Assembly: GCA_951406725.2 (NCBI GenBank)
Contig: OX597820.1
Coordinates: 105,958,001-106,022,000, forward strand
DNA length: 64,000 nucleotides
Source of the DNA: Octopus vulgaris
Taxonomy: Eukaryota
Direction: 5' to 3'
Shown here: in pieces, positions 1,626-62,110 of the stretch
Numbering within the stretch: position 1 is the stretch's first letter
Layout: the number at the start of each line of letters is the position of its first letter
The notes under the pieces: model-generated
The model's database searches: none
What the model saw: the letters and a program-made list of their open reading frames with translations, nothing else
What the model was told of the DNA's origin: nothing
Made by a program: the position numbers and the translations under genes

Positions 1626-1686
1626 CAGAGAGCTGCACCAGGTTTTATATATATATATATATTAAAAATGGGGAGGGATGGTTTAT

Positions 1687-1747
1687 GGGATTACCTTAGG
1701 TTTTCTGTTCATAAAGGGTTTAGCTTTATGGCGTATCATCAGATCCC
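1687..1747 (-). ncRNA. Type I hammerhead ribozyme motif (left arm copy)
   Basis: Minus strand: gggat CTGATGA tacgc-cataaag-ctaaacc-ctttatg-aaca GAAAAC ctaag GTA atccc. Stem I gggat/atccc, stem III cct-a-agg. Base of stem II is degenerate. Confidence 0.65.
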
Positions 1748-2164
1748 AAAAAACCTGTTGGTCCATGACCTCATAAAAATATGGAGGGGAAAATGCCTCA
1801 CTACTTTTACATAACATCACTGGCCAGCCATGTCTGGCAACTAAGAGACAATAGGATTCTATACTCGATCTCATGGTAAATCTTTGTGAACCCAGGCCCT
1901 TACATCAACGGGATGAAACATTGCAAGCTATGCATAGCTGAACGCATGAGAATCCTAAAAGACTTGCTTAACTCCAGAACAGAGATTTTTGGGCTATGTT
2001 TACATTCCAGGAGCTTCTTACTAGTCATTTGGTGCCCACAAGATGCAGCACAGCCGAAAGTTGATAGCCAATAGCAAAGGGAGATAATCCCCAGTTATTG
2101 CCTTTAAGTAGTGAGGCATTTCTCCCTCTATATTTTTAAGAGGTCATGGACCAACAGGTTTTTC

Positions 2165-2219
2165 GGGATCTGACGATACACCATAAACCCTTTATGAACG
2201 GGAGACCTAAGGTAATCCC
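2165..2219 (+). ncRNA. Type I hammerhead ribozyme motif (right arm copy, GAAA mutated to GAGA)
   Basis: gggat CTGACGA tacac-cataaa-ccc-tttatg-aacgg GAGAC ctaag GTA atccc. Confidence 0.6.
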
Positions 2220-2699
2220 ATAAACTGGCCTTCCCCATTTTTAATATATACTGCTCTACATCTTAGAATGTGCTTCTTCTTTCGGGTTTATGTTTTCTAC
2301 AAATGATCTGTGTGGGTGTGTGTAAATGAGTAGTATAAAATATGTGGATTCAGAGAATCATGCTCCTCATATGGACTTGGCTATCAGTTCACATACTAAT
2401 CAGTTACAAGGTAGTGCAATGCATAGTGTCCATGTAACCGAAAATCTAGATAAAATTATTCTATTGGGAATATATGAAAACAAAGTCAGGATGTATAAGA
2501 GGTGAACAAAGATTTCTCTAACTATATACTTCTATAGGATTACAGCCATTTCGGAACCTTCTTCATGTAGCATTAATTTCAGTGTATCAGGAATTGTGCA
2601 TACATGTCTGTATTAATGTGTGTTCATCATTATACAATACAATTGTTTATTCACAAATTAATGCAAATAAAGAAAGTTCATCAAATTACCAGAACATCC

Positions 2700-3045
2700 T
2701 GGTTATATCAACATTTGAAATCTAAATATACACAAAACTCACTCTTCATATGTATCAGTGCATTCTCTTCCACATTCAGATTTTACTGGAATAATTACAA
2801 ACTTAGACTTAGGCATAAAAATAAGCCTAGTAGTACATCTTTTGGTAAATTTGTACATTTTCTCACTAATTTATAACATTGAATATAAAATTGCTTGGTC
2901 CATTGTATGTTATGCACAGTCATATAAAGGTGGTGGTGGTGGTCGGTGTGGGTTCTCTGTATTAGAAGTAACCTACATTAGTAGAATAAAATCAAATAAT
3001 GATAAATCAATTATAAAATGCTAGCATCTTAGAAATAAGTCATTC
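2700..3045 (+). mobile_element. Degenerate Penelope-like GIY-YIG endonuclease remnant
   Basis: Frameshifted ORFs give FRFYWNNYKLRLRHKNKPSSTSFGKFVHFL ... NIEYKIAWSIVCYAQSYKGGGGGRCGFSVLEVTYI...IIKC*H. This parallels the PLE pattern FKxRYNNHKxSFRH...STELSKYIWxLK..NIxYxIxWSI...AxPYxxGxxRCxLCLxEKxxI...CRH. Confidence 0.65.
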
Positions 3046-3717
3046 CTATACACTATGTATACCTAACCTTAGATTAACTTATCAGACCTAAATTAATAAA
3101 CCTTATGATTTTGATTAATGACAGTGACCAATTTCCTATCCAATGAGGACCATAACTAATTTTCCTCTTTATAATTTATAGTGTATTTGATCATATTCAG
3201 TCATTCTTCTGTTATGTAAAACTACTTTAATGACTAATGGATATTTAGTCCATACATTTTATGCCCTAAAATAAACTATTTAAGTGAGGCTGAAGTTGTT
3301 ACTCTTTGATGACTGCCCTGCTTCTTTTTGATTGTTTTAATCCTAAATATAATCTATTATATGTGTTTTCTTTGAAATTTTACCTCTGATAATCCCTTTC
3401 ACAGTTTCACCCAATACAAGTGTTTACTCTACATCCTTTGTGACTAGTTATATATATATATTCATGCATGTGCTTTTTAATATGCATGTATATGTATACA
3501 TTTGTGTGTGTGTATGTATATGTATGCATGTATGTGCATAAATATATATGTAAATATGTGCATGTATAAGTATATTTATAAATGTCCATACTACTTGGAG
3601 CTTGTTCAGTAGGTATGAGCCATACGTTTATATACATGTACACATGAATTTAGGTTTATTTATATTTAAATACATATATATATGCACGTACATACTTACA
3701 ATATATATATATATATT

Positions 3718-59005: not shown

Positions 59006-59799
59006 AAGGCATTTCAAATGACTTGCTACTCTATGAGTGTTTCTTTCAACTGGAATATAAATTTTCGTTGAACTGGTCATAATACATCATCTATTCTATT
59101 AATCCTAGAAGAAGGAAAGAATAATTAACCACATCTTGATATGAACTTAGAAAGGAAAGAGAGGAAGCTAAATATTATAAAAGCTTTAGCAAAAAACACA
59201 GTCTAGAATGCTAGTTTGACCTAATCTCCCATCTTATTAACCTTAGTGTTACTGTATTTCTGTTGAAATACCCTCTCCTTATTTCAATTAATTTTGAAAG
59301 TAAAAAAGGATGTAGTGAAAATAACTGTCATTATTAAGCTGGTGTTTGGAATATAAATGAATATAAAATTTTGATGGAAAATTTTAATTTAGTTCACTTT
59401 AAAACAAGAAGTTGGTGTCATAGATCTAAGAATCATCTCAAGCAGGCTGGTATCAAAAGGGTTAATAATGGTTTTCCATGATGGATGGCACAAGGTTCCA
59501 AATTTGTAAAAGAAAATCACAATGGGCTGACTGGTTCCTTGTATATTACTGATATTTTATTGGCTGCGGAATAATGAAAGATAAAACTAATCCTTGCTGA
59601 AATTTAACAACTACCCTTATAATAATAATAATAATAATAATAATAATAATAATAATAATAATAATGTTACTTTTTACTTGAGGTATAAGGCCTGAAATTT
59701 GTGGTGAAAGGGGCTAGTCAATTATATCGACCCTAGTGTTCAACTGGTACTTATTTCATTGACCCCAAAAGGATGTTAGGCAAAGTTGAGCTTGGTGCA

Positions 59800-59965
59800 A
59801 TAATAATAAAAATAGAGACTGAGGGATATTGGAATTGAGACATGTATTTGCTGAAAAGGGTCAGCCTGTATTCCGCCAGAATTCTAAGAAAGATTCTCGA
59901 GATTTCAGATTATTTTCACTCAACCTCAAGACAACAATCTCTGCTAAAGCACCATTTATAACTTT
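59800..59965 (+). mobile_element. R4/Dong-like LINE 3' remnant beside (TAA)n
   Basis: LRDIGIETCIC ... SARILRKILEI resembles the TARILRKVL C-terminus of R4/Dong elements, which target (TAA)n. Confidence 0.4.
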
Positions 59966-61356
59966 ATAACAATAATATTATTATTACCATTATTATTAAG
60001 GTGGCAAGCTGACAGAATTGTTAGTGTGTCAGGCAAAAAGCTTAGCAGCATTACTTGCAACTTCTGTTTTGAATTGAAATCCTGCCAAGGTCAGCTTAAC
60101 CTTTCACCCATTCAAGGTTGATAAAATAAAGTACCAGTCAAGTACTGGGGTCCCTAGTACTCAACTTGCTCCCTCCCTTCAAAATTGCTGATCTTGTTCC
60201 AAAACTTAAACAGAATTATTATTATTATTACTACCACTTTTGTTGTCTTTTATTTATAAAACTAACAGCAACAGGTTTGGTTACTATTTCTGTTTATTTG
60301 GTTTACTTTCATATATTTTCTCTCCCCCTCTTTATTTTGAATACCTCTTACCTCCACTCATGTTTATTTTTGATTGTTTACTTTCTTCTTGAATACTATT
60401 TTAATGTCTGAAATCTTAGGCAGTACATGAAACAATTGTTCTATTTTGTTTTTGTCCATTTTTTGAATTCCAAGTGTCAGCTTAACCTAATAAATTTTGT
60501 GTTTTCTGTTCAGTTTTTTTTTTTTTGTATGTTGAGTCCAATTTGTTTGAAAAGGATTAGAAATAATTCCATCAAAGAAAGCAATATTACTTTGCTCTAA
60601 ATAGTCTCTTAACCAAAAAGAAAAGTAACAAAGAAACAAAAGATTAACAAGAAATATAGTAAAAATTATTGTTTTATAAAGATTGGTTATTAGTTGAGTT
60701 AAAGTCTTGTAAGACTTGTTAAACATATGCTAAGTTGGCTTGGAATTTTCTATGGGGAGAGATTTAGTCAAATCCCCATTGTGTTCATGTCTAATTAGCA
60801 CTTCAGTGAATATTTTAAGTCTTACACAGAAAAAAAAATCATGATGTAATCTCATGTTTATATGCAAGCATTCTTTAGTAAAGCACTTTGTAGATATTGA
60901 TTGATAACATTGGCAGAGAATATATCTAGGATTTATTTGATTAAACCTGGAGAGATGAAAGACAAAGTCATGCTTGCCAGGGTTTGAACTCATAATGAGG
61001 AATGTGACAAATGTACTTTAATATTGATGACGGGTAAGAGTTTAGCATACATATTTGCTTTTCTATTACATGAACTTTATAATTATTAAAATGATAAATA
61101 TATATGATATGCATGTGATATATATAATATATATATATATATATATATGTATGTATATATGTATATATGTATATATATATATGTATATATATATATATAT
61201 GCATATGATGTGTACCAATATATGCATATGGTATACACCAATATATGCATCAATATATATACATACATATATACATATATATATATATATATATATATAT
61301 ATATATATACATACACACACACATATATATACATATATATATATGTATATATGCAC

Positions 61357-61640
61357 ACATTCATACAATATAGTATTATGCTTCTATATCAATTGATTTA
61401 CTATTTGGTTTCATACAAGAAAGAGTTTCAACACTCATCAGAAGGGCTGGTAGGAGAAAAATGGTGCACAACTCCTTTCATGAATGCTGAGAATGATCTC
61501 TTTCCCAAATACTTGTGTATGAAACAGACTGGTAAATTGGCTGAAATAGTACTACAATATTGTATAATGTAAATAATTAATATACCCTCTGTATTGATAA
61601 ATGTACAAGTATCTGTTTTTTCTGATTCATAAATTCCCAT
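61357..61640. mobile_element. Foldback PLE-type element (arms ~61357-61419 / 61513-61570, tail to 61640) with a degenerate hammerhead at 61396-61444 (-)
   Basis: Minus strand: tt CTGATGA gtgtt..gtat GAAAC caaata GTA aa. Flanked by (TA)n. Confidence 0.5.
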
Positions 61641-61896
61641 ATATATATATATATATATATATATATATATATATATATATATATATATATATATTTATAT
61701 GTATATATATTTATATGTATATATACGTATATGTATATATATATATATATATATATATATATATATATATTATATGTATATATATTTATATGTATATATA
61801 CGTATATGTATATATATATATATATATGTATATATGTATATATATATATATATATATGTATATATATACACACATTTATATATATATATATATACA

Positions 61897-62110
61897 TATT
61901 TACAAGCAGTTAAATATATGTCTGGTTGTAGAGTGACCAATGGTTTTGCATCCACAAAGCACTAGGCTTTATAGACGGCTGGTCAGGCACAATGGCAGAT
62001 GCATATCCTTCTGCGAAACCATTGGTCACTCTATGACCAGACATATACTTACCAGCTAGTAAATACATTGCTACTCTATTCTTTAGAGTTCCATTTTGGT
62101 GGAACTCTTA
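61897..62110 (+). mobile_element. Foldback PLE-type element (arms 61897-61950 / 62012-62065) with the 3' half of a hammerhead
   Basis: gcaga..tctgc GAAAC CATTG GTC actc (61995-62031). 5' core missing. Left flank is (TA)n. Confidence 0.6.

Follow-up and report, generated by a model that had tools for sequence, protein, structure and literature searches.

What are the small, often inverted structures with hammerhead ribozyme-like motifs that recur along a 64,000-nucleotide stretch of Octopus vulgaris DNA (contig OX597820.1, G000:C7:105958001-106022000, here called the window)? A preliminary description, made from the sequence alone, listed such motifs at fifteen loci and ascribed them to several families of foldback elements derived from Penelope-like elements (PLEs). 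Searching the assembly (2.8 Gb, 227 contigs) with each listed locus, locus 14895 being represented by its family mate 30735, identified twelve genomic repeat families that account for thirteen of the fifteen loci and in whose copies a type I hammerhead with a palindromic stem III is found. Motifs do lie at the listed coordinates or close to them. Locus 1656 belongs to family B, 12344 to I, 12778 to A, 14895 and 30735 to C, 19772 to E, 21428 to F, 28737 to D, 47979 to G, 48828 to H, 57286 to M, 58512 to N and 61897 to J; the motif is supported in part at 61357 and not at 12200. The loci are very probably 5'-truncated 3' ends of many hammerhead-bearing PLE families, apparently of the Hydra clade in the five families traced to proteins, and likely arose by partial copying at repeats.

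A strict descriptor, comprising the core, a palindromic stem III and stems I and II, with U4C and G-U pairs in stem III permitted, matched four arms in the window (13027 and 48069 on the minus strand, 30739 and 48576 on the plus strand), against a mean of 0.01 matches and a maximum of one in 100 block-wise dinucleotide shuffles. A narrower canonical descriptor, run first, had found two exact motifs. Most arms in the window have one to three decayed core letters, with the full core kept in other copies of the same families. Beyond the twelve families, 32 further strict matches occurred in 1.02 Mb of de-duplicated loci (none in three shuffles), and forty evenly spaced 10-kb regions, 400 kb in all, held nine (none in ten shuffles and a reversal). 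In an Rfam scan, the best 150 of 331 matches contained no hammerhead family and were only microsatellite-driven microRNA matches, the family G locus scoring as a plant microRNA family.

Covariation was measured with a sequence-only core pattern, free of stem constraints, applied to 1.69 Mb of loci mostly chosen for these families. The pattern matched 340 times, its reversed control ten times, and the 340 matches fell into 55 clusters, 21 of them with at least two distinct members. Counting Watson-Crick pairs in one representative per cluster, we observed 3.09 of five possible pairs in stem I (1.36 after permutation), 2.91 of four in stem II (1.87) and 0.78 in stem III (0.30). For all three stems, none of 2000 permutations reached the observed pairing, and all four pair types were used. 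Both the shuffle comparison and the covariation of stems I and II, proposed in the preliminary description as checks, thus came out in its favor. The sequences show the hallmarks of minimal type I hammerheads, namely CUGANGA, GAAA and UH with covarying stems and a palindromic stem III, with U4C in place of U4 in families E, F and G.

Across the genome, the core pattern with a spacer of 9-39 nucleotides matched 63,465 times (7,352 for the reversed control), and with a spacer of 40-70 nucleotides and a six-base stem III 39,316 times (2,749). Together these make 102,781 matches against 10,101, an excess of about 92,700, or 33 per Mb, in which a few sites are counted twice and longer spacers are left out. 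The very large and diverse population anticipated from the window therefore exists, although the estimated density of one locus per 5 kb holds only for the window; intact-core motifs genome-wide number about one per 30 kb. If about one-fifth of arms keep an intact core, as in the window, the remnants would total several hundred thousand. A generic U4C pattern gave 19,762 matches against 4,040 in the control (excess about 15,700), an exact 35-nucleotide U4C motif gave 394 against none, and a 32-nucleotide stretch 3' of the family E cleavage site has 2,047 exact copies. Two other estimates were discarded. The candidate numbers of a first look, 5 to 3,266, cannot be read as copy counts, since family G, with ten, supplies 26 of the first 100 U4C matches; a flank-based density of 46 insertions per Mb for the twelve families was biased by clustering and cross-hits, the evenly spaced regions containing five in 400 kb. 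A hammerhead family with a non-palindromic stem III was also seen, at G000:C1:286716, L187 and many other places, with none detected in the window.

The arms lead into PLE proteins. Nearly full-length copies of family A (L089 and L090) consist, in order, of an inverted pseudo-long terminal repeat (pLTR), an N-terminus, a reverse transcriptase (RT) with the motif GLYRDD, a CxCX5C linker, a GIY-YIG endonuclease (EN; Pfam PF01541, E 1.1e-4, 22.8 bits against a cutoff of 22.6), an AT-rich spacer and the hammerhead, with 2.1-2.9 kb between endonuclease and hammerhead. Family A has the RT-then-GIY-YIG order of EN+ PLEs. An endonuclease lies upstream of the ribozyme on the same strand in five families, A, B, E, G and J, which upholds the proposed derivation of several families from Penelope. 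Family B shows PLE protein matches in 19 of 25 loci, including both RT and EN pieces, while the endonuclease alone was found in E (L376 and L381, the untranslated region of L376 measuring 1.3 kb), G (L093 and L100) and J (L202 and L197). In L093 (1780-2400, minus strand), the family G linker and endonuclease frame is open over the stretch translated. The linker is present in A, E and G; it was not seen in the family J copy L202, and the family B piece does not span it. No motif match to a CCHH-type C..C pair between GIY and YIG occurred in the loci examined, and CxxC and CxH around E/N are present in A and partly decayed in B, E and G. Pfam gave no match for the family E endonuclease or the family B RT piece.

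A C-terminal GIY-YIG domain, the CxCX5C linker, the lack of CCHH, and CxxC and CxH around E/N are likewise features of the Hydra clade (Craig et al. 2021, PMC8557442), as are a hammerhead near the 3' end, (TA)n targets, an inverted 5'-truncated copy and a one-sided tail. The same work lists Hydra-1_Obim, from Octopus bimaculoides, with a hammerhead and a (TA)n preference. The RT piece in L060 is about 60% identical to Hydra-1_Obim in a by-eye comparison with the supplement of that study, and a ribozyme similar to these lies at C1:1328887. RWK and DKT are intact in L293, a locus with no tie to any family of the window. From these motifs, the five protein-linked families appear to belong to the Hydra clade; the remaining families are provisionally assigned by architecture, and D also by its tail. 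Other assignments were rejected. Neptune/Nematis was dropped because neither its CX2-5CxxC linker nor its CCHH motif was seen, and Naiad, with an N-terminal endonuclease and no canonical hammerhead, does not fit a family A in which EN follows RT and hammerheads are present. An apparent antisense open reading frame in family A (L003) reflects the 5' inversion, uninverted copies having EN and ribozyme on one strand.

The insertions combine a hammerhead-bearing pLTR, an inverted 5'-truncated copy and a one-sided tail, the arrangement known for EN+ PLEs. Tails of about 45-150 nucleotides and inverted arms occur at most loci, much as first described, the exceptions among the arms being the single arms at 14895 and 30735 and a direct pair at 58512. 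The arms, reported as mostly unrelated, do sort into twelve families, except that A and D share tails, as do B and J. The 3' ends lie at two fixed positions, with or without the tail, and the 5' ends vary.

For closer statistics, 97 distinct family E arms were taken around the first 100 listed places of the 2,047 copies; in every family, the arms for 5'-end statistics were chosen solely on sequence lying 3' of the cut. The 5' end lies past the cut in five of the 97, at the cut in one, within the ribozyme in 25, 33-60 nucleotides upstream in 62 and further away in four. A tail accompanies 47 and an inverted partner 67, leaving 30 without a partner within the stretch tested. In all 13 two-armed pairs, with a three-arm locus excluded, exactly one arm carries the tail, an outcome expected about once in 8,000 if tails were independent. 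Of 53 ends without a tail, 49 have a repeat within 16 nucleotides, as do 31 of 33 ends with one (80 of 86 together), compared with 11.9% of random positions, in keeping with the microsatellite context originally noted; (TA)n context was found by inspection in other families. In family E, the favored 5' position falls on an A/T palindrome and on the 5' strand of a long stem I. We considered a general stop zone at the 5' edge of the ribozyme, but the zone is specific to family E, because 5' ends in F and B spread over hundreds of bases, 22 of 30 and 18 of 30, respectively, lying more than 30 nucleotides beyond the core. Insertions L251, L300 and L255 of family E are complex, with repeated partial tails or three arms, which suggests repeated restarts by RT.

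This architecture bears on several other explanations. The first, which we regard as improbable, holds that these families include non-LTR retrozymes, which are non-coding units arranged in tandem that spread as circular RNAs after self-cleavage. Retrozymes also have type I hammerheads, very high copy numbers and a link to PLE pLTRs (PMC7229834; Li et al. 2026 preprint), up to 120,000 copies being known in axolotl, and their derivation from pLTRs has been proposed (preprint 10.64898/2026.07.22.740005). Family N, a direct pair about 320 nucleotides apart with no protein link, fits this explanation, as do a few tandem pLTR triplets. Most copies are, however, solitary or inverted, the motifs are minimal rather than canonical, and the ends are fixed downstream of the ribozyme instead of at the cut; families A to J are dispersed or inverted, not head-to-tail non-coding tandems, and resemble truncated ends of coding elements. 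Two triple direct repeats of ribozyme-bearing ends elsewhere (G000:C29:12744715-12745266 and C1:5011305-5012441) are possible retrozyme precursors.

Somewhat less probable again is that the inverted units are non-autonomous foldback elements, either like miniature inverted-repeat transposable elements (MITEs) or derived from a master PLE, that transpose whole. Near-perfect pairs (345 nucleotides at 100%), the inverted partner of 67 of 97 family E arms and the clustering of 62 of their 5' ends would suit such a unit. Yet junction letters vary between copies and the two arms end independently, 30 of the 97 arms lack a partner, ends in F and B are widely spread, and the arms lead into RT and EN rather than a transposase, so that this possibility is largely refuted. 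A DNA transposon or MITE with terminal inverted repeats, an origin named in the preliminary description as one that would refute it, was rejected on the asymmetric ends, variable junctions and RT/EN parents, target duplications being unreadable in microsatellites. The inverted architecture first described stands, but because junctions vary, many copies are one-armed and 13 of 13 family E pairs have one tail, the foldbacks look like by-products of insertion rather than units that move.

A third explanation, with still less in its favor, derives the short copies from hammerhead-cleaved RNA, the cut setting the 5' end. Conservation of the ribozyme fold across families speaks for this, but 5' ends at the cleavage site number one of 97 in E, one of 30 in F and none of 30 in B, two of 157 in total, and cleavage is dispensable in vitro (Frangieh et al. 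2024, PMC11167929); for E, F and B this origin is refuted. Chance matching in AT-rich, repeat-rich DNA has next to no probability, since the failure of most window arms to satisfy the strict descriptor and the lack of a family for 12200 are outweighed by four matches against 0.01 in the window, nine against none in 400 kb and a tenfold excess over reversed patterns, and it is refuted except possibly at 12200.

The preferred explanation, partial insertion of PLE 3' ends, suggests the following sequence of events. The RT/GIY-YIG protein of the element likely nicks (TA)n or (AAT)n repeats, and uncleaved RNA would then be copied for only about 50-300 bases. By analogy with Poseidon (Frangieh et al. 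2024), priming may take place on both target strands, with a different one of two internal start sites used on each, and the short cDNAs so made may be joined through their truncated ends; the product would be a head-to-head pair in which just one arm has a tail. Weak cleavage is predicted for the ribozymes, either as stem III dimers or with help from protein, and these insertions can probably form without it. Almost every copy would be dead on arrival and would then decay, often at CpG. The Poseidon element PAc likewise has two internal RT start sites bracketing a tail and an AT-rich target, and its protein in vitro cuts and extends both strands with uncleaved RNA as template (PMC11167929). 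PAc represents another clade than Hydra, and we infer from the resemblance that the same scheme may apply to Hydra elements; a difference is that in vitro the strands showed no distinction in start site, whereas 13 of 13 genomic pairs use one each. A bolder proposal, to which we give rather little credence, is that this genome, with some 100,000 hammerheads from a radiation of Hydra-clade elements, has one of the densest natural ribozyme populations seen. In this proposal, a damped U4C core would have been fixed in the most prolific families because the fold acts as a protein-binding and template-switch signal and not as a cutter, one RT start would be used per strand, and tens of thousands of hairpins would feed double-stranded RNA editing and silencing in the host.

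The ribozymes vary in a family-specific way. Positions 3-5 read CCG in 48 of 69 family E, 14 of 20 family F and 11 of 12 family G copies, with CTG or CCA also present, as expected from CpG decay, and CTG in 25 of 27 family A and 19 of 24 family B copies; the founder core of family E is CCGACGA. U4C or long-helix variants may already figure in Lunse et al. 2017. A viroid also has U4C, which there reduces activity in vitro yet suffices in vivo (PMC3088659); none of the Hydra rows in File S2 of Craig et al. (PMC8557442) carries it, while that file already includes motifs with an additional mismatched or unpaired pair where helix II begins at its base. In predicted homodimers of A, C, E and G, stem III pairs between molecules. 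Whole head-to-head insertions are predicted to form long hairpins, 71-99% paired; in read-through transcripts, these would hide the ribozyme. By eye, CTTCGG inside helix II of family G (48576-48613) is able to pair with the CCGAAG core, which would give a fold other than the active one and might serve as a switch.

Several points weigh against our interpretation. The Hydra assignment draws on motifs and by-eye comparison rather than a tree, family A has degenerate RWK and DKT motifs, and families C, D, F, H, I, M and N (seven of twelve), as well as K, show no clean protein link in 1.5-kb flanks, the protein match near H having ambiguous geometry. The repeat evidence is adjacency at ends, not a repeat preceding the insertion. 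Genome-wide matches are to core patterns only, irrespective of stems and clade, and about 27 of the first 100 short-spacer matches belong to the one family with a non-palindromic stem III. Predicted monomer folds reach the hammerhead form only in part.

Much of this agrees with minimal metazoan PLE hammerheads (Cervera and De la Pena 2014, PMC4209133), which are type I with a short palindromic helix III and an extra letter after position 9, comprise many families per genome, mostly as single or opposite-strand motifs of truncated PLEs, and have predicted dimer activity. Their reported core variant is U3-A8, compared with U4C here, and their counts of about 2,000-9,000 per genome, obtained with another descriptor, are lower than ours. 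The motif layout of family E equals that of Hydra-2_aMil in File S2 (PMC8557442). Departures from the Hydra listing there are U4C, a helix II of 40-105 nucleotides, 3' untranslated regions of 1.3-2.9 kb, and tails of 45-150 rather than 30-40 nucleotides. Where Craig et al. (2021) list one octopus family, we find 55 motif clusters in a non-random 1.7-Mb sample and about 92,700 cores. Penelope is abundant in cephalopod repeat surveys (PMC8967140), and our literature searches, which left out most subscription journals, Repbase and Dfam, returned no octopus hammerhead count. What is new here is how large the radiation is, together with the U4C founders, the long helix II and the one-tail rule; the architecture itself was already described.

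Within the window, the family B insertion (1656..2307, plus strand, cores decayed) has an inverted arm at 1663-1806 with its core at 1742 on the minus strand, a second arm at 2106-2243 with its core at 2170, and a tail at 2245-2307; between the arms, at 1790-2020, the window itself retains a GIY-YIG C-terminal fragment. The hammerhead-like remnant at 12175..12282 (minus strand) has G8 changed, and its genome search matched only itself, with very common words skipped, so that uniqueness is not proven. Family I occupies 12344..12634 (plus strand), a head-to-head pair at 12344-12587 whose two cores have decayed or been interrupted by the junction, with a tail of about 45 nucleotides. The family A insertion (12778..14323, minus strand) keeps an intact hammerhead at 13027-12947 with stem III CACGTG, an AT-rich 3' untranslated piece, a short inverted arm at 14092-14236 and a tail to 14323. 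The 3' end of a long interspersed nuclear element (LINE) with an (ATG)n tail (13270-13812, minus strand) interrupts this copy and, being inserted into it, is younger.

Family C has single arms at 14894..15016 (minus strand, decayed core, adjoining (TA)n) and 30720..30860 (plus strand, intact hammerhead at 30739-30814), and a further arm, absent from the preliminary description, at 31345..31478 (plus strand, C3 decayed). Family E (19772..19978, minus strand) is a head-to-head pair at 19838-19978 with a tail at 19772-19842. Family F (21432..21830, minus strand) has a hammerhead arm with core CCAATGA, where the family has CCGATGA, a short inverted arm at 21623-21680 and a tail of about 150 nucleotides at 21681-21830. 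Family D (28737..29418, minus strand) has its core at 29079, a long helix II, an inverted arm at 29298-29418 and, at 28737-28815, the tail common to family A; its stem III is CGTACG in the family, and the cleavage triplet is decayed in this copy.

Family G (47976..48731, plus strand) is a perfect 345-nucleotide inverted repeat (47976-48320 and 48325-48669) that folds at the end of the endonuclease frame, with a tail to 48731 and two U4C hammerheads, at 48069 (minus) and 48576 (plus); this repeat and copies 96-100% alike point to a young family with recent activity. Family H (48821..49212, plus strand) is a head-to-head pair in (AAT)n with a helix II of about 105 nucleotides and a stem III, CGCGCG in the family, that is decayed here. 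Old insertions follow: a head-to-head pair of family M (57264..57422, plus strand, core decayed), two direct copies of family N (58499..59006, minus strand, stem III decayed), and a pair of family K (61357..61630, minus strand) with a tail of about 55 nucleotides and four weak relatives that cover the 3' core. The family J pair (61897..62089, minus strand) has decayed cores and a partial tail.

Other repeats share the window. LINE RT fragments matching Pfam RVT_1, which we take to be RTE-like, lie at 8401-9604 (plus strand). One repeat occurs in three copies (445-1082, 18799-19481 and 41327-42232), its frame at 701-1090 presumably a decayed Tc1/mariner transposase end. Very abundant repeats resembling short interspersed nuclear elements occur at 1241-1623, 14387-15440, 15874-16400 and elsewhere, some in inverted pairs mistakable for PLE arms (e.g., 14753-15146).

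Overall, the observation in the preliminary description is partly confirmed and its interpretation supported. A clade of which only a few families had been listed becomes a major component of a genome, the roughly 92,700 intact-core motifs amounting to an unusually large radiation. Short inverted pieces of this kind are easily taken for MITEs, foldback elements or microRNA hairpins, a risk for annotation. The copy statistics back the internal-initiation model with genomic evidence and contribute a rule of one tail per pair. The population is also a very large natural library of hammerhead variants, with U4C cores, helix II lengths of 10-105 nucleotides and many stem III palindromes, that can be used to ask what role the ribozyme plays in PLEs.

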